35,578 nt of DNA from Candidatus Bathyarchaeota archaeon (lineage in GTDB: Archaea > Thermoproteota > Bathyarchaeia > Bathyarchaeales > Bathycorpusculaceae). Positions 13,723 to 35,471 of this stretch are shown piece after piece. The stretch lies in the NCBI GenBank assembly GCA_963772455.1, contig CAVYXJ010000014.1, positions 1 through 35,578 of the forward strand, in the 5' to 3' direction. Within the stretch, counting starts at the first letter, position 1; the number at the start of each line of letters is the position of its first letter. The translations under genes and the position numbers were made by a program. The notes below the pieces were generated by a model. It had not been told where the DNA came from. It searched no databases and was given only the letters and a program-made list of their open reading frames with translations.

Positions 13723-13764
13723 TTTTGTTTAGTTTTTCTGAGAGTTTTAGTTCGCATGGACCGC
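13723..13764 (+). repeat. Dispersed 42-bp repeat, copy 1 (copy 2 at 33676-33717)
   Basis: 27 identical bp (ttttgtttagtttttctgagagtttta), then gttcgcatggaccgc versus ttccgcgtggaccgc. Confidence 0.85.
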
Positions 13765-18335: not shown

Positions 18336-18699
18336 CGAATTTTGAGTTTGCTCAAAATTTTTGGGAATAGGCTTTTGCTTTTTTTCTTTCGAACTTGGTG
18401 CCATTGCAGTTTTCTTGAGCATAAAGCACTTGAAAAATATTGTCTATCGGTTGCAGGGTTGCAGTAAGAAATAATATTTAAGAGAAGAAGAAGAGCAAAT
18501 TTTTTTCACACTCTTCTACTCTTGGCGAATTATTGTTTTAGTTGGTGGGATCGATAACTTTTAATTCCAGGTTTTTTGTCAAATACCTAAGAATATCGTC
18601 GTGAGAGTTTTTGTTTTATTCTTAATTTGGTCTATCTAGGGTTGGACTGACTAGAAGTAATAAGCAAATATTGCCGAATTAAGTTTTGAGGAAAAATTT

Positions 18700-24084: not shown

Positions 24085-24333
24085 GTGACCGCTGAGCTTA
24101 AAGCAGTGAAAATTAGCAAAGAAACATATTCCGAATTAAGTGCTATCGCAGGCGAATTACAGATTAAAAGAAAACGACCCGTATCGATGGATGAAGCGAT
24201 GAAATATCTGATACGGCGAAGTAGAAAAGGAAAAAAGATTTCGGATTTAGCGGGTTCATGGATTATGAGTGACTCTGAAGCAGAAGAAATCAAGACTTCA
24301 ATTGCCAAGGCATGGGAAACATGGAAACCTTAA
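24085..24333 (+). CDS. vapB: VapB-type antitoxin (RHH-like N-terminus)
   Basis: KAVKISKETYSEL...SMDEAMKYLI...LAGSW...EAEEI; overlaps the downstream PIN gene. Confidence 0.75.
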   Translation: MTAELKAVKISKETYSELSAIAGELQIKRKRPVSMDEAMKYLIRRSRKGKKISDLAGSWIMSDSEAEEIKTSIAKAWETWKP

Positions 24334-24728
24334 AAACAGTAATTGATACCGACCTCTTAATTGATCTGCTAAGAAATCAGAAACGAGCAACAGCCTTCGT
24401 TGCCAAGCTGGAGGAAAAAAACTATGTTTTGGCAACTACCACAATTAATATTTTTGAACTCCATCATGGCGCGCATAAATCTCAGGAAAGCGAAAAAAAT
24501 CTTCAAGCAATCCACATACTCACAAGCAGGTTAATTATTCTTCCGTTTACTTCAAAAGCTGCTCAAAAAGCAGGCCACATATACGCACAATTAGAGCGTC
24601 AAGGGCAACCGATTGGACTAAGAGACACTCTTGTTTCTGCCATCGCTCTAACGCTGGAATACAGTGTCGCCACACGCAACAAAGCGCACTTTAGCAGGAT
24701 TTCTGAATTAGAAGTCATTACACCCTAA
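24312..24728 (+). CDS. vapC: PIN-domain VapC toxin
   Basis: IDTDLLID, FEL, DTLVSAIAL and TRNKAHF PIN motifs. Confidence 0.92.
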   Translation: MGNMETLKTVIDTDLLIDLLRNQKRATAFVAKLEEKNYVLATTTINIFELHHGAHKSQESEKNLQAIHILTSRLIILPFTSKAAQKAGHIYAQLERQGQPIGLRDTLVSAIALTLEYSVATRNKAHFSRISELEVITP

Positions 24729-25048
24729 AACCTAATCGCTGATTTTATCATTCGTTTAAGGATGAAGAATTAACTTTCAGATCTAGGAGAGATTGATTTT
24801 TCCTCTATTTCCGTCATTTAGTTATTGGTTTGATTTTTCAGAAAGCATCTATTCACAAATGTTTACTCTTAGATAGGGAAATTGGTTTGAAGACTGATTC
24901 TTTCCATAATGCCTTTACTGACAAATGGGCTTTTAGAATTAAAAAAATAATCTTTTTTGCGTTGACAGTTTAGAATTCCAGATCTTGCAAAATATCACAA
25001 AAATCCATGTAAGAACTGAAAACCCCGACCCATGAGTATAGAAGCATC

Positions 25049-26318: not shown

Positions 26319-26438
26319 TTATATCAGGTTAAAAAGGAATCTTAAAGCAACGATGAGAACTATTACTAATACTACTACTATGATAGCATACCAGAGCCAT
26401 CCAGCTAAACCAGCTTTGATATTACGGAAAAATTTCAT
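26319..26438 (-). CDS. Unannotated 39-aa single-TM small protein
   Basis: GGTGA RBS 7 nt before ATG. MKFFRNIKAGLAGWLWYAIIVVVLVIVLIVALRFLFNLI*. Confidence 0.6.
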   Translation of the reverse strand: MKFFRNIKAGLAGWLWYAIIVVVLVIVLIVALRFLFNLI

Positions 26439-26622
26439 TGGCTAATCACCTCTTGTATACCTGATTTATTGTCTTTTTTTGTACTTAACGATTTGTGATT
26501 GTAGAACCACAGCTACAAGCGCTTGCTGGCATTGAGTGACAAACAGGCATTGAATGACAGGCGTTAGGCAGGCACGTGGACGCGGGTGAGAGTACGTCGT
26601 CTTAGATGTTCCTTTAAAAGAG

Positions 26623-26664
26623 AGATCAAAATTTGATCCTGTATTGTGCATTAAATTTTAGTGC
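26623..26664 (+). repeat. Two adjacent variants of the 17-bp palindrome
   Basis: agatcaaa-a-tttgatcc (26623-26639) and gcattaaa-t-tttagtgc (26648-26664). Confidence 0.6.
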
Positions 26665-26773
26665 TATAGTCGGAATCGAGTATAAGTGACTTACAATCTT
26701 ATAATAATAGAAAAAACTCTTAACCTAATTCGCTGAAATAGTTTTTACCCAAAATTGATATGAGGCTGTTCAA

Positions 26774-27361
26774 TTGACTAAGTTGAATCTTCGAGAGGAA
26801 CAATTGAAAAAGATAAGACAACTCACGAAAATTGGAGCAGACAACACATACCAATTCTTAGGTTATACCCTTAATTTGGAAACAAAGCAATTTCAGGACT
26901 ATCTTGAGAAGGGCACTGTGAATAACGATTGGGAGATCCAAAATATGACTGCTCTATTAGCTCATTATTCTTTAGCTAACGAGACTACAAAGACAAGTAA
27001 GTTGGTGAAGTTTAAGGATCTGCCAGGAGGATACGCTTACGAACATGCATTTAAACAAAGAGCGGTTGATCCGATTGCACAAACTTTTGGCAGTAACCCG
27101 GCTGAACTCGCGGAAGCTGCAAAGATATTTGGTGGAAAAAGGGTGAATTACGGTGATATGTCTGTAGAGATTCCTGCTTTAGAGGGAATACCTATAGTGT
27201 ACATACTTTGGGCAACATCAGAGTTTCCAGCATCGGCAAATTTACTCTTCGACGAATCGGCAAGTTGTTTTTTGGATACTGAAGCCCTTTCGAGTTTAGG
27301 TGAACTTTCAACGCATCGACTTTTAAAAGCTCAGTTAATTCTAAAGGAAAAGAAATTCTGA
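26774..27361 (+). CDS. DUF3786-like protein
   Basis: FKDLPGGYAY..AF and IPIVYILW...EFPASANLLFD motifs. Confidence 0.8.
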   Translation: MTKLNLREEQLKKIRQLTKIGADNTYQFLGYTLNLETKQFQDYLEKGTVNNDWEIQNMTALLAHYSLANETTKTSKLVKFKDLPGGYAYEHAFKQRAVDPIAQTFGSNPAELAEAAKIFGGKRVNYGDMSVEIPALEGIPIVYILWATSEFPASANLLFDESASCFLDTEALSSLGELSTHRLLKAQLILKEKKF

Positions 27362-27371
27362 AATTATCGTC

Positions 27372-27400
27372 GGGTGGAATAAATTTTGATCCATCCAACC
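27372..27400 (+). repeat. 17-bp palindrome copy with extended arms
   Basis: gggt-ggaataaa-t-tttgatcc-atccaacc, 10 nt after the DUF3786 stop. Confidence 0.75.
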
Positions 27401-27613
27401 GATCAAAAATCTCCACATGAGCTAAGCGAGCTTTCCACTGTTACATACTGCAGTAATTTTTTTGATTTAAGTTTAATTAAAAAAAGTACCTCGACTATTC
27501 CTGATAAATAACTTGTTGTGTGATTGCGAAGGGGCAACCACAACAACTTAAATCGCACTGCTATCTAAGTAAAATCTAATTATTTTATCTTCATTAGATG
27601 GAGGTGAAAATTT

Positions 27614-27877
27614 ATGATTTTTGTGAGTCTGGGTAAAATGAGAAAGAAGCCTGACAAAGCAATGGCGGGGAACGCGACCGAAAAGGTAGAAGAGTTCAAG
27701 AAAAAAGGAATAAACATTCTCAATTGGTATTGGACGTTAGGGCGATATGATACAGTCGTTGTATTCGAAGCAGCAAACGAAAAAGAAGCATTAAAATTCT
27801 CCTTAGGTGTTGCGGAGTTCGTAGCTACAGAGACCTTGGTTGCCATTCCCAGGCAAGAAGCCGTAGAGCTTCTTTGA
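27614..27877 (+). CDS. GYD-domain protein
   Basis: GGAGGTGA RBS; YWTLGRYDTVVVFEA and TETLVA signatures. Confidence 0.88.
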   Translation: MIFVSLGKMRKKPDKAMAGNATEKVEEFKKKGINILNWYWTLGRYDTVVVFEAANEKEALKFSLGVAEFVATETLVAIPRQEAVELL

Positions 27878-27957
27878 GATAAATCGTTATCTCGTGCGAT
27901 GTTTATGGAACAATAGTTCATCCCTTTCTTAATTAAAATTTTTTCCCACACGTGCCT

Positions 27958-28221
27958 TTAGATAAAACCGTTTTGTTTGCACGATTTCTCAACTTCTATG
28001 AATATTATGTTATCAGCATAGTTTTGGCGAAACTTGTCAAGTACGTCTCGGAGATCTTCTTTGCTTATCCCGCTAATTCTTATTTTTTCAACTAGCCACA
28101 CTAAGACCATATGTCCGTTTAAAAGACGGTTAATAGCGAATTCTACATTCTCTTTCATGCTTTCTTTGTCAGATTTCACCTTATCCAAAACAACACACCT
28201 TGACAAACAATCAATAAACAA
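27958..28221 (-). CDS. Hypothetical protein (start uncertain, possibly ATG 28158)
   Basis: Helical, charged ORF; no motif recognised. Confidence 0.5.
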   Translation of the reverse strand: MFIDCLSRCVVLDKVKSDKESMKENVEFAINRLLNGHMVLVWLVEKIRISGISKEDLRDVLDKFRQNYADNIIFIEVEKSCKQNGFI

Positions 28222-28252
28222 ACTACTAATTCGTTAGGATTTGTTCTTTAGG

Positions 28253-28353
28253 GGATTAAAATTTAATCCAACCAACCAACTACTTCACGCTTAGCAAATA
28301 AGGCATCCTTAATAGTAGACATGGTTTAGCATACATAGTAACATAAGCATACT
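28253..28353 (+). repeat. Palindrome plus type-A extension
   Basis: Perfect ggattaaa-a-tttaatcc, then aaccaaccaactacttcacgcttagca...aaggcatcctt...agtagacatggtttagcatacatag. Confidence 0.9.
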
Positions 28354-28469
28354 AAATCGGAATTGAGTATAGGGACCTTTTAAACTAACGTTTTATCACA
28401 AGTGATTTAAGCTAAGAACAATAAACTGCTATTTATTGTGTTTCAGTTTTTGAGGAGGAAGTCAGTTAA

Positions 28470-28709
28470 ATGAAAAATACCTTGATAATCCTTGGAGCTC
28501 TGTTATCCCTCATAATATCAAGCGTAATCCTTCTAATCTATCTCTGGACTCAGGTGCCCATGGGCTTGCCGTTGGCTCTTCTGCCATGGGCTTTGGTCTT
28601 TGTAATCTTCGCTTTTGTCGGTTGCTTTATTTGGCTGGCTAACGGGTTGCGACGAAAGAAGAAAGCTGAAACTCCTCAGCTACATACGAAAAGTCAAATG
28701 AAGGGATGA
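28470..28709 (+). CDS. Small 2-TM hypothetical membrane protein
   Basis: GAGGAGG RBS, two hydrophobic helices, RRKKK stop-transfer. Confidence 0.7.
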   Translation: MKNTLIILGALLSLIISSVILLIYLWTQVPMGLPLALLPWALVFVIFAFVGCFIWLANGLRRKKKAETPQLHTKSQMKG

Positions 28710-28848
28710 GGGCATCCTTTCTTTATTCTTTGTATTAGAACCTGCAAAAGGCGATCGAACTTTTTTCTAAGTAGTTTTTTAATTAACTTCGTGGATTATG
28801 CTCTTTAGAGTTTGAATTGTAACTCAGAAAGTCAGAATTAGTGCGGCG

Positions 28849-28948
28849 AATTTAAATTTTAATCCAACCAACCAATTCAACGTACCGCAGGTACACGTAA
28901 AAAAGCTCTATTCAGCGTAGACACGGTTCGGCATACATAGAGCATACT
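28849..28948 (+). repeat. Palindrome plus type-B extension with A-like tail
   Basis: aatttaaa-t-tttaatcc-aaccaaccaattcaacgtaccgcaggtacacgtaaaaaagctct...gtagacacggttcggcatacatag. Confidence 0.9.
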
Positions 28949-29007
28949 CAAGCTTGAGAGTGAATTGAAAATGGATAGCTAATTCGAAATTATTGGAGAC
29001 AAAAGTC

Positions 29008-29385
29008 TTAGATTATCTCCTTGACTTCGATGTGTTCCTTGTCGTCGTGGACTTTGTTCGTTCTTATGTCGAGCCAGCAATGGAATATGTCTTCGTTGTG
29101 CAATCTGTGGCTATGAGGTTCAGGTTGAACGTGGGATTTTATCATGCTAAAGCATACATCGGAAATTATCACCTTAAAGTTTCCGTTCGGTAGAACTTGA
29201 ACGGTTACGTGGCTTTCGTCCGTTGGCAAGTTTCCGTAGGTGCCTTTGTTTTCGATGCTGAGTTCTCGTTCTAGCCAGAGCTCTAAGAGTTGGGTGTTTG
29301 GTCGTTTTGGTTTTTTTATTTCTTTGTTGATGAGGTCTAGGTACTGTGGGGGGATTGTTAACTCGAATGTTTTCACGTTAAGCAC
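29008..29385 (-). CDS. Hypothetical protein with His-rich C-terminus
   Basis: 125-aa ORF with GTG start; SHVQPEPHSHRLHNEDIFHC...VHDDKEH. Confidence 0.6.
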   Translation of the reverse strand: MLNVKTFELTIPPQYLDLINKEIKKPKRPNTQLLELWLERELSIENKGTYGNLPTDESHVTVQVLPNGNFKVIISDVCFSMIKSHVQPEPHSHRLHNEDIFHCWLDIRTNKVHDDKEHIEVKEII

Positions 29386-29479
29386 CTGTTTTATTAGAAA
29401 CTGACAAATGTGGTATAAATACAGATTGGAGAAGCTTTCTGATGGCGAGTTGGATGGTGGTTATTGGTGTGTGCACAGG

Positions 29480-32032
29480 TTATGCTCCCAGTTTTCCCTT
29501 CTTAACCGCCTTGTATACCTCAAACCAAATAATACTGCCAAAGCCTGCAATAAAGCAAATCAACAGATTCATAGGTGACAACGCCGAGAAGGTGAAAAGA
29601 CCGCTCAGCGGCGGCAAATAAATTACTAACAATAGGGCGACTAGTGTGAGCGCTAGTATTTCCCAGAAAGCTTTGTTTGGTCTGCGGAAGATACCCACGA
29701 TAGATTGACTCCATGAACGGTTCGTAATTATAAGCGCCAAGTTTGTCAAAACTATTGTTGCAAATGCCATTGTGCGAGCTATATCTATGCCTGATCCTGT
29801 TGAAGCAGCATACAAGTAAACTGCAATTACCAAAACCAAGGCAACTATCCCTTGGAGCGCAGAAATAACGGCTGCTTTCATGTTGAACAGCCTAGAGTTT
29901 ATGCTCCTCGGTTTTCGCTTCATAATATCCTTTTCTTCAGACTCCGCTTCAAAAACTGTAGTGCAAGCTGGGTCGATAATGAATTCTAAGAAGACGATGT
30001 GCACTGGCATTAGAATGAGTGGCCAGCCGAAAAGCACAGGCAATGCTGAAAGTCCCGCGATTGGAATATGAACTGAAAAAATGTACGCAATTGCTTTTTT
30101 GAGGTTGTCAAAGATTCTGCGACCCATCTTTACACCCCCTACAATAGACGTGAAATCATCGTCTAGTAACACCAGCGTTGAGGCTTCTCTGGCGACGTCT
30201 GTTCCTCTACCACCCATGGCGATGCCTATGTTGGCTGATTTGAGAGCGGGTGCATCGTTTACGCCGTCGCCAGTCATTGCAACTATTTCGCCGTTTGCTT
30301 TGAAAGAGTCAACAATTCTAAGTTTTTGTTCAGGAACAACTCGCGCAAAGATGTTTACATTTTTAATTCTATCCTTCAGGTCTTCATCGTTCATTTTTTC
30401 TAGTTCTGGTCCAGTTATAATGTTCTCGGGATTTCGTAGACCTATTTGTCTGCCAATATTCTGTGCTGTCAGTGGATAGTCACCAGTGATCATAACTACT
30501 CTTATGCCTGCGTTGTAGCATTCGTTAACTGCATGAGAAACGTTCGGTCTTACTGGATCGACGAAGCCGATTAAGCCAATAAACTTGAATGAGAAATCAT
30601 GCTGCTCTTTAGGAAGCTGTCCTTCTTCCATTCTGAAGGAAGTTTTAGCCACGCCCAAAACGCGAAGACCATCTTTAGCCATTTTCTTAATGTTGGCAGA
30701 GATTTCTTTTGGTTCCGCTTCTTTTAGGTGACACAACTCTATTATGGCTTCAGGCGCACCTTTAGCCGCGATGATATAGTCAGTGCCATTGGGTGAACCC
30801 CAAACGTTTGACATGGCTAACAGCTTTTGGGATAGTGGATATTCTTGAATAAGTTGCCAGTCTCCATGGACATGTTCTGTTTTTGCGAAGTCTCCTTCTA
30901 CGAAGTTTGTGATAGCTTTCTCCATAGGATCGAAGGGGTCTTTTTTGCATGCAAGAACACTGAATTCAACTAGTTCGTGGCAGCAATCGGGTGGACTCTT
31001 TAGAGCTGAGTCGATTTCATATATTTCATTTCCTGCACAGAGTTTAGATACGGACATTTTGTTGAGTGTTAGAGTACCAGTTTTATCAACGCAGAGCACT
31101 GTAGCTGATCCAAGACTCTCTATTGCATGAGGCTGTCGTGTCAGCACGTTCTTTTTAGACATACGCCACGCGCCCAGCGCCAAGAAAATAGTTAAAACAA
31201 CAGGGAACTCTTCTGGCAGAAGCGCCATTGCCAAGGTTACTCCCGCCAGTATGCCTTCTATCCAGTCGAAGCGTGTTAAACCGTAAACGATGATGACTAA
31301 TGCGCATAAGGATAAACCAAAGATAGCAAAGTTGCGGACAAGCTTTGATACTTCAACTTTTAATTTGGTTTCATCGCGTTCAACTTTTTGAAGAACTATT
31401 CCTATTTTTCCCATTTCGGTTTTGGGGCCTGTAGCTTTGACTATTGCAAAGGCTTGACCTTGAGTCACAAGGGTTCCGGAGTATATGTAAGGTTGGTCGT
31501 CTCCACCTGGCCGCCAAGTTTGATCTTCTATTTTTCCAACGGTTTTGCGAACTGGGACTGATTCACCTGTCAGAAGTGATTCATCAACCATTAAGTTGTT
31601 TGATGATAGAAGCAATGCGTCTGCTGGAACGCGGTCACCCTCCGCCAAAATCATGATGTCGTCAAGTACTACTTCTCGACCTGCGACTCGAACTTGTTTG
31701 CCGTCTCTAATAACTAGTGCTCGAGGGCTTGATAAATTCTTTAAGGCATCGAGAGCATTCTCTGTTTTCCGTTCTTGAAAAACGGTTATGCCCATGACCA
31801 CAAAAACAAAGCTAAGCAAAACTAAGCCTTCAGTGACATCGCCTAAGAAGAAGTATATGCTGCCACTAGCGACAAGCAGAAGAAAAATAGGCTCTTTAAG
31901 TACGCTCAACGCAATTTGAAAGACGCTTCGCTTCTTAGACGAGGGTAACTCATTATACCCCTCTTTCTTCAGTTTCTCTTGGGCTTCGTTGGATGAAATT
32001 CCAGTTAATGTATCAACGTCAAAGTTACGCAT
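29480..32032 (-). CDS. Cation-translocating P-type ATPase (P2-like)
   Basis: TGES, DKTGTLT, KGAPE, MITGD and TGDGVNDAPAL motifs; PEEFP in TM4. ATG 32032 is preferred (ORF open to 32095). Confidence 0.95.
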   Translation of the reverse strand: MRNFDVDTLTGISSNEAQEKLKKEGYNELPSSKKRSVFQIALSVLKEPIFLLLVASGSIYFFLGDVTEGLVLLSFVFVVMGITVFQERKTENALDALKNLSSPRALVIRDGKQVRVAGREVVLDDIMILAEGDRVPADALLLSSNNLMVDESLLTGESVPVRKTVGKIEDQTWRPGGDDQPYIYSGTLVTQGQAFAIVKATGPKTEMGKIGIVLQKVERDETKLKVEVSKLVRNFAIFGLSLCALVIIVYGLTRFDWIEGILAGVTLAMALLPEEFPVVLTIFLALGAWRMSKKNVLTRQPHAIESLGSATVLCVDKTGTLTLNKMSVSKLCAGNEIYEIDSALKSPPDCCHELVEFSVLACKKDPFDPMEKAITNFVEGDFAKTEHVHGDWQLIQEYPLSQKLLAMSNVWGSPNGTDYIIAAKGAPEAIIELCHLKEAEPKEISANIKKMAKDGLRVLGVAKTSFRMEEGQLPKEQHDFSFKFIGLIGFVDPVRPNVSHAVNECYNAGIRVVMITGDYPLTAQNIGRQIGLRNPENIITGPELEKMNDEDLKDRIKNVNIFARVVPEQKLRIVDSFKANGEIVAMTGDGVNDAPALKSANIGIAMGGRGTDVAREASTLVLLDDDFTSIVGGVKMGRRIFDNLKKAIAYIFSVHIPIAGLSALPVLFGWPLILMPVHIVFLEFIIDPACTTVFEAESEEKDIMKRKPRSINSRLFNMKAAVISALQGIVALVLVIAVYLYAASTGSGIDIARTMAFATIVLTNLALIITNRSWSQSIVGIFRRPNKAFWEILALTLVALLLVIYLPPLSGLFTFSALSPMNLLICFIAGFGSIIWFEVYKAVKKGKLGA

Positions 32033-32170
32033 ATACACGAGTTCCTTTTTGCTGTGGAGACAAACCCAATTGTCTTCTATTGGAGTTGAAGCCATCCACT
32101 TTCTATTAGTAATTGCTTACTTGAAAAGAGAAAACACTTAAAGGTCTTTTGTCACTGTTATTTTTTATCA

Positions 32171-33013
32171 GTGGTGAAAAAAGTGAAAAGTATTGACCTT
32201 CAAAAAGCACTTGAAACATTAGGTTTAACTGAATACGAGGCCAAAGCATACATCAATCTGATACAAATAGGCACTTCTAACGCAGGTAACCTTAGTAAAC
32301 TTACTGAGATACCACACTCAAAAATATATGAAGTCCTAATTCGCCTCGAAAAAAAGAGATTATTAGAAGTCCAAAAAGGCCGACCGCTTTTCTTCAAAGC
32401 GATAAAACCCTCCGCCGCCTTAAAAGGAGTCGAAATCGAGCTAAAAGACAACCTAAAACGCGAACTCTTGAAAAGAAAAAATGATTTAGAAGTCCTCTAT
32501 GAAAAAAAGATGGGACAAATATCTCAAGCTCATACAGAGCTTGGAGAATTGGACAATTTTTATGAGAAAAATGCTGCTTTCGAACCCTCCGAAGAATTCA
32601 TTTGGACGATTCGAGGAAAAGACAACTTGAGTAGCCAGGCCAAGGAGATCATTCAAAGTGCTTCGGCAGAGGCGCGGTTAATGATGCCCCTTGATGATTT
32701 CTCTGAATTGATATCGACAATCAAAACTGTATCCTCAAAAGGAGTTAAGGTTCTACTTGTGATTCATGAGCTTTCTGAGAGTGTGAGGAAACTCAAAGAC
32801 TCAGCTGAAATTTTCTACGACAAGTCTCCGTTGCCTACGAATTGCGGAATGATTTTAACTGATGATAAGAGAGGTATGTTTATTTCAGAAGACTCTAATA
32901 GTGGGTTTAAAGCATCAAGTAAGAGTGTCTTGATGGTTCTTGCCCAATTCTTTCAGCATGAACTTGAGGAGTCAGCGAAAATAGAACTTAATCAAATTAC
33001 CCCTACAGATTGA
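32171..33013 (+). CDS. TrmB-family transcriptional regulator
   Basis: LGLTEYEAKAY...IPHSKIYEVLIRLEKK wHTH plus one effector domain; divergent from the ATPase. Confidence 0.9.
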   Translation: MVKKVKSIDLQKALETLGLTEYEAKAYINLIQIGTSNAGNLSKLTEIPHSKIYEVLIRLEKKRLLEVQKGRPLFFKAIKPSAALKGVEIELKDNLKRELLKRKNDLEVLYEKKMGQISQAHTELGELDNFYEKNAAFEPSEEFIWTIRGKDNLSSQAKEIIQSASAEARLMMPLDDFSELISTIKTVSSKGVKVLLVIHELSESVRKLKDSAEIFYDKSPLPTNCGMILTDDKRGMFISEDSNSGFKASSKSVLMVLAQFFQHELEESAKIELNQITPTD

Positions 33014-33142
33014 GTCAACCCAAGTAAAAGGACCGAATTCAACATAGTCTCGATTAGACCAATGAACAACTAGATTACACAACATCGAGAAGATTGACCA
33101 TTAAGATAACCAACAAAGCACTCCGTCTTGTTACTCTTAGTT

Positions 33143-33217
33143 TTGGTTTGGTTGGACCAAAATTTAATCCACCACCAACCAATTCAACGTATCTCAGGGA
33201 CACGTAAAAAAGGCTCT
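33143..33217 (+). repeat. Palindrome plus type-B extension
   Basis: ttggtttggtt-ggaccaaa-a-tttaatcc-accaccaaccaattcaacgtatctcagggacacgtaaaaaaggctct. Confidence 0.9.
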
Positions 33218-33265
33218 GACTACTGAGAATTCCCTTAAGCCACCGAGCGTAAAAAATGTGTGTGT

Positions 33266-33340
33266 GCTTTAAATTTTAATCCAACCAACTACTTCACGCT
33301 TAGCAGGTTAAGGCATCCTTAGTAGACACGGTTTAGCATA
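33266..33340 (+). repeat. Palindrome plus type-A extension
   Basis: gctttaaa-t-tttaatcc-aaccaactacttcacgcttagcaggttaaggcatccttagtagacacggtttagcata. Confidence 0.9.
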
Positions 33341-33598
33341 TGTTAATAATAGAGATTTTGAGAAAAAAACAGGTAATGACAAAAGCGATTACACAGAGCA
33401 AAAAGATATTCGCGAAAAAGAGTTTAAAGAAAAATCTGAAACTGACAAAAGCGAAAACAAAGAACGAAAAGCCGGCCAAAAAAAAGTTTTTAAAGAAAAA
33501 ATCGATAAAGAAGAAAAAGATTTTAAGAACAAAGATTCTGAAAAATGAAAAATTGTCGATTAGATAAGCATCTCAAGTGTTTGGGATCGTTATGTTAC

Positions 33599-33618
33599 GG
33601 TGGATTAAATTATAGTTA
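33599..33618 (-). repeat. Inverted copy of the palindrome's conserved arm
   Basis: ggtggattaaatt (33599-33611) is the exact reverse complement of aatttaatccacc (33161-33173). Confidence 0.7.
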
Positions 33619-33675
33619 AAAAAACAAAAGGAGACAATTTCTAAAAATATTATTTTTAGGTTATGCCCAACTCGT

Positions 33676-33717
33676 TTTTGTTTAGTTTTTCTGAGAGTTT
33701 TATTCCGCGTGGACCGC
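33676..33717 (+). repeat. Dispersed 42-bp repeat, copy 2
   Basis: Matches 13723-13764, including 27 identical bp. Confidence 0.85.
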
Positions 33718-33913
33718 AAAGAAAATTTCTATGAGATGTCGATTCTTTGACTTGTTTGTCAGAGGTTTGTTCCCGAGTTCCCAAGTTGTACCACTTTTTA
33801 TGGTGTGCCCAAAACTATCTGTTTATCTTAAATTTATTGAAGGGTAGTATTTCCATAGTTGAATTAGGATTATGCTTTTAGGGTAGTACTGATATTTGGT
33901 TATATTGATTAAC

Positions 33914-34144
33914 ATGACCAGTGTTGTAAAGGTTACTCGAAAAGGTCAAACAACCATACCAATAGAAGTTAGGCAAAAACTTTTGATAAAGGAAGGAGAC
34001 AAACTTTTAGTTGAAACAACAGAACATGGACAAGTTATTTTTACGCCACTCAGAAAGCTGGAAGATTGCGCAGGTATCTACTCAAAATATGCTAAGCCAG
34101 AAGAAATGAAAAAGCACATAGACAAGCTTAGAGAGGAGTATTAA
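33914..34144 (+). CDS. AbrB/MazE/SpoVT-family antitoxin
   Basis: KVTRKGQTTIPIEVRQKLLIKEGDKL; directly upstream of a PIN gene. Confidence 0.9.
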   Translation: MTSVVKVTRKGQTTIPIEVRQKLLIKEGDKLLVETTEHGQVIFTPLRKLEDCAGIYSKYAKPEEMKKHIDKLREEY

Positions 34145-34147
34145 GGC

Positions 34148-34546
34148 TTGAAGATGGTGCTTGACAGCCGATTCGTCATGGAATATTTCTATTCAGACAA
34201 GACTGAAACTAAACAGAAAGCTACAAAAAAGTTAAAGGAACTCATACAGCGCAAAGAAGGTATACTTCCAACAATTGTTATCAGTGAAACTATTCAGACT
34301 ATTTGTGAATATATAGGAAAAGATGAAGCGGAAATCTGCTATGCAAATCTTACTGAAAGTGGTCTGAAGATCCAGACTCTTACATCGTTAATAGCCAAAC
34401 ATGCAGGCTTACTCAGAAGTAAGTACCGAAATATACCTATGGGCGATTGTATAATTGCTGCAACAGCATTAGCCAATCAAGCATCTATTTTGTCTGATGA
34501 CCCTCATTTTGATGTAATAAAGGAAACAAAGAGAAATTGGATCTAA
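34148..34546 (+). CDS. vapC: PIN-domain VapC toxin
   Basis: VLDSRF, ISE, DCIIAATA and SDDPHF motifs. Confidence 0.9.
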   Translation: MKMVLDSRFVMEYFYSDKTETKQKATKKLKELIQRKEGILPTIVISETIQTICEYIGKDEAEICYANLTESGLKIQTLTSLIAKHAGLLRSKYRNIPMGDCIIAATALANQASILSDDPHFDVIKETKRNWI

Positions 34547-34597: not shown

Positions 34598-34791
34598 GAA
34601 GGATGAAAAATAAGAACTTTTTTTTACCGATTACTTAGAATTGTGTTTCAAAAATGAATAGTTAACTTAGTAGAAGAAGACTAATTTTTTTATCTTCTTC
34701 TTTTGATGTTGATTTTTTTGTTTGCCCATTAGAGAAGTAGTATAAGTAAACAATTTATAGTATTTTGATATATAATTTAGTAGGTGAAATT

Positions 34792-35052
34792 ATGGCTTAC
34801 GAAGTTAAAGTAACCCGCCAATGCCAAACCACCATCCCCCACGCCATACGGAAAAAATACAAAATAGATGAAGGCGACAGTGTAATCTACGTTGACTTAG
34901 GAGACCACATAGCAATTGTGCCTGTTTCTAAAAATCCCCTTAAGACATTAAAAGACTTCAAAATTGACGTAAAAGAATCCGTTCCTGAAATGCGCAGAGA
35001 AGCGTTGCAGACCGCTCAGAGGCTTGTGGACAAAAAATTAAAAGGTGACTAA
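34792..35052 (+). CDS. AbrB/MazE/SpoVT-family antitoxin
   Basis: AGGTGA RBS before ATG 34792; KVTRQCQTTIPHAIRKKYKIDEGDSV. Confidence 0.88.
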   Translation: MAYEVKVTRQCQTTIPHAIRKKYKIDEGDSVIYVDLGDHIAIVPVSKNPLKTLKDFKIDVKESVPEMRREALQTAQRLVDKKLKGD

Positions 35053-35471
35053 TAATCCTGATTGAATCCGACCTTTTACTTGCAACTATTAAAAAGGAGG
35101 ACCGTTTAAAGCCGGTGGCAGAAACTATCCTTGAGAGGATAGATTCAGGTGAACTCAAAGGTGTTTATGCCTCAACAGCTGTTATTCAAGAGGTTATTTT
35201 CTGGTTTTACAATAGAGAATTATTCAGTGAGCTTGCTTTAGCTGTGAATGTTCTGTCTCACCTGCGGAACGTTGAGTGGGTTGCCGTAACCCCTGAAATA
35301 TGTTTAACCGCTTCACTTTTGATTAACGAATACAAAACCTCACCTTTCGATGCTTACCACGCAGCAACTGCAATGCCCAGAGATAAAACCATCCTTAGCA
35401 CCGAACACATATATGACAAAATCAAAGGAATAACGAGAATAGAACCCAGAATGTTTGCCAACGACCTGTAG
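35052..35471 (+). CDS. vapC: PIN-domain VapC toxin, probable non-canonical or mutated start
   Basis: The frame is open back to 35049 and encodes IILIESDLL upstream of GTG 35115. VIQE, FDAYHAATA and STEHIYD PIN motifs are present. Confidence 0.85.
   Translation: MILIESDLLLATIKKEDRLKPVAETILERIDSGELKGVYASTAVIQEVIFWFYNRELFSELALAVNVLSHLRNVEWVAVTPEICLTASLLINEYKTSPFDAYHAATAMPRDKTILSTEHIYDKIKGITRIEPRMFANDL

Follow-up and report, generated by a model that had tools for sequence, protein, structure and literature searches.

A conserved, promoter-like palindromic element at the borders of accessory-gene modules in Bathyarchaeia

We analyzed a 35,578-bp stretch of DNA (the window) from Candidatus Bathyarchaeota archaeon, which is the whole of contig CAVYXJ010000014.1 in a 24-contig, 2.45-Mb genome that is 92% complete. 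An array of short palindromic sites, here called Box 1, is located between small groups of accessory genes at 26–34 kb of the window. Box 1 is a real, conserved and promoter-like border element of accessory-gene modules. No description of it was found in the literature searched, and we regard it as an undescribed element. The reading that we favor, at a probability of roughly 0.45, is that Box 1 belongs to a portable promoter-plus-leader unit, the repeated copies of which are preferred points of exchange.

The window was scanned with the palindrome pattern GGATTAAAWTTTAATCC, allowing up to 3 mismatches, with 100 shuffled sequences as the control. Seven matches were obtained, at 26623, 26648, 27376, 28253 (perfect), 28849, 33154 and 33266, all within 26623–33282, as compared to an expectation of 0.24 matches; the highest shuffle gave 3 matches and none of the 100 shuffles gave 7. 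The array of 17-bp palindromes that had been described from the letters alone (the sequence-only reading) was thus recovered, and all of its sites are intergenic in the window, as had been stated. The eighth, inverted copy reported at 33602 is no more than a half-site; by eye it has 4 mismatches to the 17-mer, and it was missed by the scan with up to 3 mismatches. This half-site is an 18-nt arm, 89% complementary to 33156–33173. Throughout the 2.45-Mb genome, the 17-mer was found with up to 3 mismatches at approximately 31 places (62 rows over both strands, since each palindromic match is counted on both).

The conserved arm and the sequence of the AxCCAAC type that had been noted beside it were both confirmed, with TTTAATCC followed by AACCAAC(CAAC) after five sites in the same orientation. 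Copies of the 17-mer with this tail number about a dozen in the genome, five of them in the window, and the conserved arm with its tail is the key to a real, longer motif. In its extended form, Box 1 reads rGATTAAA-W-TTTAATCC followed by a (CCAA)n tail, and the consensus of the relatives ends in -AACCAAC. The other side consists of simple G-containing repeats, (GA)n, (GT)n or GGGTTT-like, and is G-rich or purine-rich. The real unit is longer than the palindrome, and it is directional. The five tailed sites of the window are direct and one half-site is inverted, and inverted pairs surround single genes in other places, at L013, L030 and GYD.

The motif with its tail was found in other genomes far above control levels. 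At up to 1 mismatch, 75 matches were obtained in 22 of 41 genomes, as compared to 7 for a reversed control pattern, and within the genus the motif occurred in 18 of the 24 other genomes, at 1–9 copies each. The exact 18-mer was present in 16 of the 301 genomes that were taken from across the class, with 34 matches versus 1 control match and a patchy distribution over the families f1, f7, f24 and f31. Outside the family, the flanks of Box 1 are unrelated to those observed here. Since the motif is kept across families while its flanks are unrelated, the motif itself is under constraint. As separate observations, the length of the (CCAA)n tail differs between copies, from 2 to 5 units, and long microsatellites or low-complexity tracts adjoin Box 1 copies, such as (GA)n of approximately 26 units, (GACG)n and (CAACT)n (contig C6 of the same genome at position 50197; L005 in relative G030; L029 in relative G019).

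Box 1 is the first part of a composite unit. Box 2, which is GTAGACACGGTTYAGCATA-like, is located 60–75 nt downstream of many Box 1 copies, and Box 3, a 22-nt near-palindrome, follows 110–190 nt downstream of Box 1 in many copies. Counted from the other end, Box 1 was found 130–200 nt upstream of Box 3 in approximately 22 of 30 fetched copies, and the boxes align across 17 copies. The middle stretch between the boxes occurs in alternative types, each common to several species and each with a short hairpin, as judged by inspection. With up to 3 mismatches, Box 3 was present in 47 of 120 genomes of the genus, including this one, with 0 control matches. It has two common spacer forms, and tandem copies 46–60 nt apart were observed in several genomes. 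In the window, elements A (28253–28373) and B (28849–28966) are full or nearly full, while C and D (33154–33345) are partial, and upstream of the DUF3786 gene the palindrome is fused directly to Box 3 (26648–26685). The features of the array are as follows.

26623–26639: palindrome copy F1, 3 mismatches, no tail (pattern scan and sequence check).
26648–26664, plus strand: palindrome copy F2, 3 mismatches, running directly into a Box 3 copy (pattern scan and sequence check).
26664–26685, plus strand: Box 3 copy with 2 mismatches to the 22-mer consensus, approximately 90 nt before the DUF3786 start; position kept in relatives G011 and G067.
27376–27399, plus strand: Box 1 copy E with tail, 15 nt past the DUF3786 stop; homology to the DUF3786 module of G011 ends there.
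27464–27485: AT-only palindrome bounding the GYD module on the left; perfect Box 1 at the same position in relative G061.
27925–27941: AT-only palindrome bounding the GYD module on the right; homology to G011 (94%) ends at its centre.
28253–28281, plus strand: Box 1 copy A, flanked by two divergent genes; the 17-mer is perfect and the tail is (CCAA)3, and a metagenome contig of 99% identity departs from the window past 28268.
28315–28338, plus strand: Box 2 of element A.
28350–28373, plus strand: Box 3 variant of element A.
28849–28879, plus strand: tailed Box 1 copy B (type-2 head), pointing to the 3' end of the His-rich gene.
28917–28940, plus strand: Box 2 of element B.
28941–28966, plus strand: degenerate Box 3 of element B, itself palindromic (by inspection).
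33154–33185, plus strand: tailed Box 1 copy C (type-2 head), whose left flank is a mirror of the tail.
33266–33289, plus strand: Box 1 copy D with tail and type-1 head.
33322–33345, plus strand: Box 2 of element D, containing the ATG of a 75-aa Lys-rich open reading frame (ORF).
33599–33618, minus strand: inverted half-site past the Lys-rich ORF, one of an inverted-repeat pair.

Two further observations concern the composite elements. One class (L068, L071, L073, L074 and L077, in G042, G081, G098, G099 and G101, respectively) has, before Box 3, one or two hairpins in which GGGGTAA pairs with TTACCCC across an A-rich loop. In addition, a gene for an HTH_45 winged-helix protein of 78–81 aa recurs with Box 3 approximately 74 nt upstream and Box 1 approximately 10 nt past its stop (L072, L074, L101 and L030; G097, G099 and G013). 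The HTH_45 protein is a candidate binder of the boxes.

The sites split the region into modules of 1–3 genes, as first proposed, and similar islands, with 3–6 Box 1 sites between such modules, were found in at least seven other genomes (8 with the window). Genes are located on both strands in the window and in these 7 islands. In the relatives, the genes found at 26–34 kb of the window are scattered, and only the ATPase and TrmB genes stay together. The ends of conserved blocks, defined by a length of at least 200 nt and an identity of at least 75%, were mapped in 28 loci and gave 90 unique ends. A total of 81 ends were intergenic, and 45 of these fell in a region with Box 1 (base rate 60 of 188 regions). 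Synteny breakpoints fall on the sites above expectation, with 17 of the 45 ends at most 15 nt from Box 1, as compared to 4.9 under uniform placement, in statistics that build on naive ORF calls, on loci fetched for holding the motif and on partly reciprocal BLAST pairs.

Individual blocks ended at or near the palindromes. The 94% identity of the GYD block to G011 begins at one flanking palindrome, ends at the centre of the other and gives way to unrelated sequence outside, and G061 has perfect Box 1 copies at both flank positions. The DUF3786 block in common with G011 extends from the edge of the palindrome at 26648–26664 to just past 27376–27399. This genome, G011 and G067 have all kept Box 3 some 80–95 nt ahead of the DUF3786 gene, and relative G002 has a DUF3786 gene without the whole element, with the proximal upstream region kept. 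A metagenome contig with 2 differences in 168 nt leaves the window at 28268, one base before the end of palindrome A, and a second one leaves it at 27957; each is a single low-depth contig. In two genomes, a DUF4760 gene has Box 1 approximately 160 nt upstream and again 9–10 nt past its stop. G011 and G116 are 92% identical over the DUF4760 module, as compared to 85.5% at their rpoB loci.

Modules without Box 1 sites, namely toxin-antitoxin (TA) pairs and a GNAT gene, move as freely. No site was found within 1.5 kb of the ATPase-TrmB loci in nine relatives, and there were none at 9 of 14 His-rich loci and 5 of 7 DUF3786 loci. A search for empty sites with the GYD locus of G011 returned only further scattered modules. 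The rarity with which homology crosses Box 1 (2 of 58 high-scoring segment pairs versus 15.2 expected) was rejected as evidence for the sites, because control regions free of Box 1 are crossed just as rarely: homology crossed 1 of 31 intergenic regions without Box 1 and 0 of 27 with it. Joints in metagenome contigs were discarded as well. Those at 27373>28853 and 28281>33321 have on one side only some 21–26 letters, which are the repeat itself, and were not taken as deletions; those at 24783>33677 and 33721>25422 concern another repeat. Of the metagenome contigs, use was made only of the loose ends at 28268 and 27957.

The gene context of Box 1 was analyzed for 41 sites in the fetched loci, again with naive ORF calls, and 37 of these were intergenic. 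Gene starts cluster 150–260 nt from Box 1. The remark that several sites lie past stop codons held up, in that many sites face gene 3' ends and six are at most 36 nt from a stop codon. No fixed distance to the starts of a coherent regulon was observed; the distances range from approximately 22 to more than 700 nt. Beside Box 1 and Box 3 lie accessory genes that are small and unrelated to each other (GYD, CMD, HTH_45, DUF116, lipocalin, NosD, cupin, SnoaL, ferredoxins and DUF4760).

Judged by its letters, Box 1 looks like an archaeal promoter composed of a B recognition element (BRE) and a TATA box, and in some loci it sits at the expected promoter position. It has an AT-rich 8-mer and a purine-rich upstream flank, and in the copies with a (GA)n flank the TATA-like 8-mer has a purine-rich, BRE-like stretch directly upstream. 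In this genome, tRNA genes have AAAG[GC]-TTTAAAT approximately 35–45 nt upstream. The (GA)n copies of Box 1 read ..GAAAG-ATTAAAT.., which matches this tRNA upstream motif, and the copies without (GA)n have GGTT- or GT-type flanks. In the His-rich family, 4 of 14 loci have a Box 1-like palindrome 22–25 nt ahead of the start codon, a place that by inspection is taken by a TATTTATA box in the His-rich gene of the window. Transcription from an archaeal BRE/TATA promoter starts approximately 25–30 nt downstream, and the spacing of 22–25 nt would be indirect support for such a start. A genome from a different family has the motif 34 nt before a tRNA-Gly gene. Unlike a BRE/TATA promoter, Box 1 is extended, palindromic and low-copy, has a conserved C/A tail, and is also found past stops and between convergent genes.

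In the reading that we favor, Box 1 would be a BRE/TATA-type promoter at the outer end of a portable intergenic unit. Box 2 to Box 3 would act as a transcribed leader or as an operator. A full unit extends over 110–190 nt, from Box 1 by way of a type-specific stretch with a short hairpin and Box 2 to Box 3. Such units are located at the borders of small accessory modules in hypervariable islands of the genus and the family, and gene modules would carry their promoter and leader along. A role of Box 1 in recombination is plausible: because many module borders have the same 20–30 nt in common, modules would tend to be exchanged and rearranged at or beside this stretch. The most economical mechanism would be recombination between repeat copies, rather than a dedicated integron-like or Xer-like enzyme.

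Several observations weigh against this reading. Box 1 is not oriented towards genes, with a co-oriented gene on the tail side at 19 of 41 sites and a convergent gene at 15 of 41, and approximately 8 of the 41 sites lie between convergent genes. The gene past Box 3 is co-oriented in 20 of 32 cases and convergent in 12 of 32. Such convergent placement counts against a plain mRNA promoter there. The AT core TTAAAWTTTAA is present in 19 copies in the genome versus 15–19 for non-palindromic controls, and is no general promoter here. The breaks at the palindrome centre (GYD module against G011) or at its very edge (palindrome A) sever the would-be BRE, which favors a crossover within the site over selection to keep the promoter unit whole. 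Of 10 pairs of adjacent elements with Box 3 (7 islands and the window), 9 have the same orientation, and simple repeat-mediated exchange does not predict co-orientation. The make-up of the border statistics, described above, must also be placed on this side.

The co-orientation and the position of the breaks, one at a palindrome centre and one at the last base in a 99%-identical strain, are in line with a dedicated cassette system. In such a system, Box 1 together with its flanks would provide two inverted arms of 9–11 bp, separated by a 7-bp AT spacer, at which a recombinase encoded elsewhere and acting in trans would make the crossover. The enzyme would insert, excise and invert modules of 1–3 genes, Box 3 could be a second site in 8-6-8 form, and the Box 2–Box 3 leader would be a promoter or guide part. 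The sequence-only reading had suggested a cassette-shuffling system of this kind. The partitioning of the region that it observed stands, the modules occur separately in relatives, and block ends are enriched at the sites. Also consistent with it are the arrays with sites in most intergenic regions of the islands of 8 genomes, one conserved and one variable arm, as in hybrid sites, and a motif conserved alone across families with unrelated flanks, as for a protein-binding site. The cargo is cassette-like (GYD, cupin, SnoaL, lipocalin, CMD, HTH_45, DUF4760 and ferredoxins), TA pairs are located beside the arrays, and the DUF4760 module is more similar between G011 and G116 than their rpoB loci are.

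No enzyme was found to go with the sites. The window contains no tyrosine, serine or Y1 recombinase and no PF00589 match. The genome as a whole displayed one marginal Phage_integrase match (27.2 bits, contig C6) together with two fragments. Neither a resolvase nor a Y1 transposase (Y1_Tnp) was present, and the one TnpB-type match, weak at 21 bits and on another contig, fell below the family cut-off. Integrase matches are frequent in the genus, with 811 in 113 of 120 genomes. The suggestion that a recombinase might be linked to the site clusters was not supported, in that there was none in the window or by the arrays and none consistently linked to the elements among the 150 matches listed of the 811. 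Relative G116 has 3 Box 3 copies and no integrase match. The modules that move without sites, the lack of sites at the ATPase-TrmB module in 9 relatives and at most of the His-rich and DUF3786 loci, the site-free intergenic regions that homology leaves equally uncrossed, and the metagenome joints explained by the repeat itself likewise count against a cassette system. We consider a new archaeal gene-cassette system unlikely.

The architecture of the sites differs from that of the described systems. An 8-1-8 palindrome is not known as a tyrosine-recombinase core. Box 1 resembles Acinetobacter pdif modules, in the excerpted descriptions used here, in that short, partly palindromic sites surround small accessory or TA modules that reassort between replicons, with no recombinase gene beside the sites and one half-site better conserved. 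However, pdif sites are described there as 28 bp long, 11-6-11, similar to the host dif and of alternating orientation, whereas Box 1 has an 8-1-8 core and a (CCAA)n tail, 5 of 6 tailed copies of the window are direct, the copies are located on archaeal chromosomal contigs, and no link to XerA was found. With its flanks, Box 1 reaches at best approximately 9-7-9, which falls short of a 28-bp 11-6-11 dif site. Archaeal dif is described as single-copy and 11-6-11 in the excerpt of the published account used here (PMC8371274).

Integrons have the core-site consensus RYYYAAC, to which the tail ATCCAAC fits by eye; by inspection, no partner GTTRRRY was found at the far end of the unit. As in integron attC arrays, including the archaeal ones in the part of the account drawn on here (10.1101/2022.02.06.479319), small unrelated genes are located between structured, co-oriented sites. 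Unlike integrons, the islands have no IntI and no attI, by inspection show no attC of 57–141 bp with paired R''/R' cores in the imperfect inverted arrangement R''-L''/L'-R', and, unlike integron cassettes, which are mostly promoterless and co-oriented, the genes occur in both orientations and apparently with their own promoter-like sequence.

In another reading, the boxes have no part in rearrangement and form a pure regulon. Box 1 and Box 3 would be the operators of one or two transcription factors, that of Box 3 of the TrmB family, that co-regulate accessory genes, and they would be found at module borders for the sole reason that every gene retains a control region of its own. Each box is a near-palindrome with the size of an operator. 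In the portion of the source available here (PMC4158304), the motif of the Halobacterium TrmB regulator is the inverted repeat TACT-N7-8-GAGTA or TACT-N3-AGTA, in either form near a promoter. Box 3 reads TAGT-N7-GAGTA, an inverted repeat with the same half-sites and spacing, and TrmB genes are located nearby. Its commonest form is one base off (TAGT), and the window copy in element B reads TACT-N7-GAGAG; the 22-mer is conserved far beyond the half-sites. The likeness to the TrmB operator, put forward as a resemblance in letters, concerns Box 3 and not the 17-bp palindrome. The tandem copies of Box 3, the small HTH_45 genes that recur beside the elements, and the position of Box 3 kept before the DUF3786 start in three genomes also suggest regulation. 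Three TrmB-family genes are present on the 35-kb contig (20431–22989 and 32171–33013); one of them encodes 703 aa with a weak PLD-like match.

A pure regulon is nevertheless improbable in our view. Many copies are directed at the 3' end of a gene or are flanked by convergent genes, the distance from Box 3 to the start codon varies from 40 to more than 280 nt, and the neighboring genes have no common functional theme. The DUF3786 gene of G002 has kept its proximal upstream region without the element, the ATPase-TrmB loci of the relatives have no Box 1, and the breaks at a palindrome centre would be unexplained.

Alternatively, the stretch from Box 1 to Box 3 could insert into intergenic DNA whatever the neighbors, either as the gene of a small non-coding RNA under a promoter of its own or as a non-autonomous mobile element. 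Its orientation is independent of the neighbors, it is multi-copy, assemblies often break 100–150 nt from Box 1, the middle part has the discrete subtypes described above, and upstream of DUF3786 it is present in this genome, G011 and G067 and absent in G002. Searches for an RNA family were negative, with 0 matches in the window to Rfam 15 at the gathering score and only chance-level ones at permissive thresholds. Single-sequence folds of 12 composite copies displayed no common structure beyond the Box 3 hairpin. By inspection, the Box 3 variants are not clearly compensatory, and no consistent T-run follows Box 3. REP (repetitive extragenic palindromic) elements follow a GTAG rule. Box 1 is similar to them, and to the bacterial interspersed mosaic elements (BIMEs) that occur with REP-associated tyrosine transposases (RAYTs), in that extragenic palindromes are sometimes found as inverted pairs and the word GTAG starts Box 2. 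Unlike these elements, it is present in 1–9 copies and not hundreds, its palindrome is AT-rich and not GC-rich, and the genome has no Y1 transposase. With a low copy number, unrelated ends without terminal inverted repeats, no target duplication seen and no matching transposase in the genome beyond the weak TnpB-type match below cut-off, also unlike miniature inverted-repeat transposable elements and other elements derived from insertion sequences, a selfish or stand-alone unit is the most doubtful of these alternatives.

Bathyarchaeia are abundant and, to our knowledge, essentially without genetic tools, and we know of nothing on their promoters or on the movement of their accessory genes. 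Several families have the same motif of 25–30 nt down to the letter, and it marks the edges of gene modules that are shuffled. If it is a promoter or operator, it would be the first defined class for Bathyarchaeia, useful for annotation and expression tools. If it is a cassette junction, the system would work without a known integrase, and Bathyarchaeia of several families would insert, invert and swap promoter-bearing modules of 1–3 genes in chromosomal islands. Both readings are directly testable by mapping of transcript ends and by long-read population data.

The modules between the sites were as first listed, with the DUF3786, GYD, P-type ATPase and TrmB families assigned by Pfam and the two-transmembrane protein also present. 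TA pairs flank the array on both sides, again as listed, with VapB/PIN on the left and MazE/PIN on the right. A tRNA scan of the window gave no tRNA gene, and a look-up of RNA sequencing runs listed none that contains the region. The genes are as follows.

24085–24728: TA pair VapB/PIN.
26774–27361: DUF3786 gene (Pfam).
27614–27877: GYD gene (Pfam), followed by an 87-aa ORF without a family at 27958–28221, minus strand.
28470–28709: two-transmembrane protein of 79 aa.
29008–29385, minus strand: His-rich protein of 125 aa without a Pfam family.
29480–32095, minus strand: P-type cation ATPase (Pfam).
32171–33013: TrmB (Pfam).
33340–33567: Lys-rich ORF of 75 aa inside an A-rich stretch.
33896–34546 and 34765–35471: TA pairs MazE/PIN.

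The His-rich protein belongs to a family with 149 relatives at E ≤ 0.001; among the 120 listed, the identity is 63–86% and no Pfam domain was found. Its predicted structure has a pLDDT confidence score of 81 and appears to contain a duplicated beta-alpha-alpha-beta unit. The possibility that it is a hidden HUH nuclease was rejected, as it is a conserved hypothetical family with no PDB match at E ≤ 0.001. The ATPase-TrmB module has a paralogue in the same genome (C11:146084–149590) with 82% DNA identity. Degenerate Box 1-like sites are located approximately 45 nt past the end of the paralogous ATPase gene (146026) and approximately 420 nt past the end of its TrmB gene (150039), and the latter has a further conserved tail in common with C12:152111.

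Other repeats were observed in the window. A non-coding stretch of 55–66 nt upstream of a MazE/PIN pair (33671–33736), with a partial copy at 13723–13764, represents a separate repeat family. It is 86–95% identical in G067, G060, G059 and G002, metagenome contigs link it to other TA-side positions, and it is possibly TA-associated. At 26400–26575, a conserved non-coding stretch together with the start of an ORF for a 32-aa transmembrane peptide (26344–26440, minus strand) displayed 75–83% identity in five relatives and has 85% paralogues at C15:16194–16350 and C5:48130–48286 of the same genome. It holds a TGTGATTG...CCACA hairpin resembling that of the GYD leader (27510–27545). Finally, a separate dispersed repeat (..GGAATTAGAAGTTATTGATCCCACCAACTAAAACAATAATTCG..) was met during the scan for the tail motif, at 18538 on the minus strand of the window and at C9:3534, 5190 and 31864 of the same genome.

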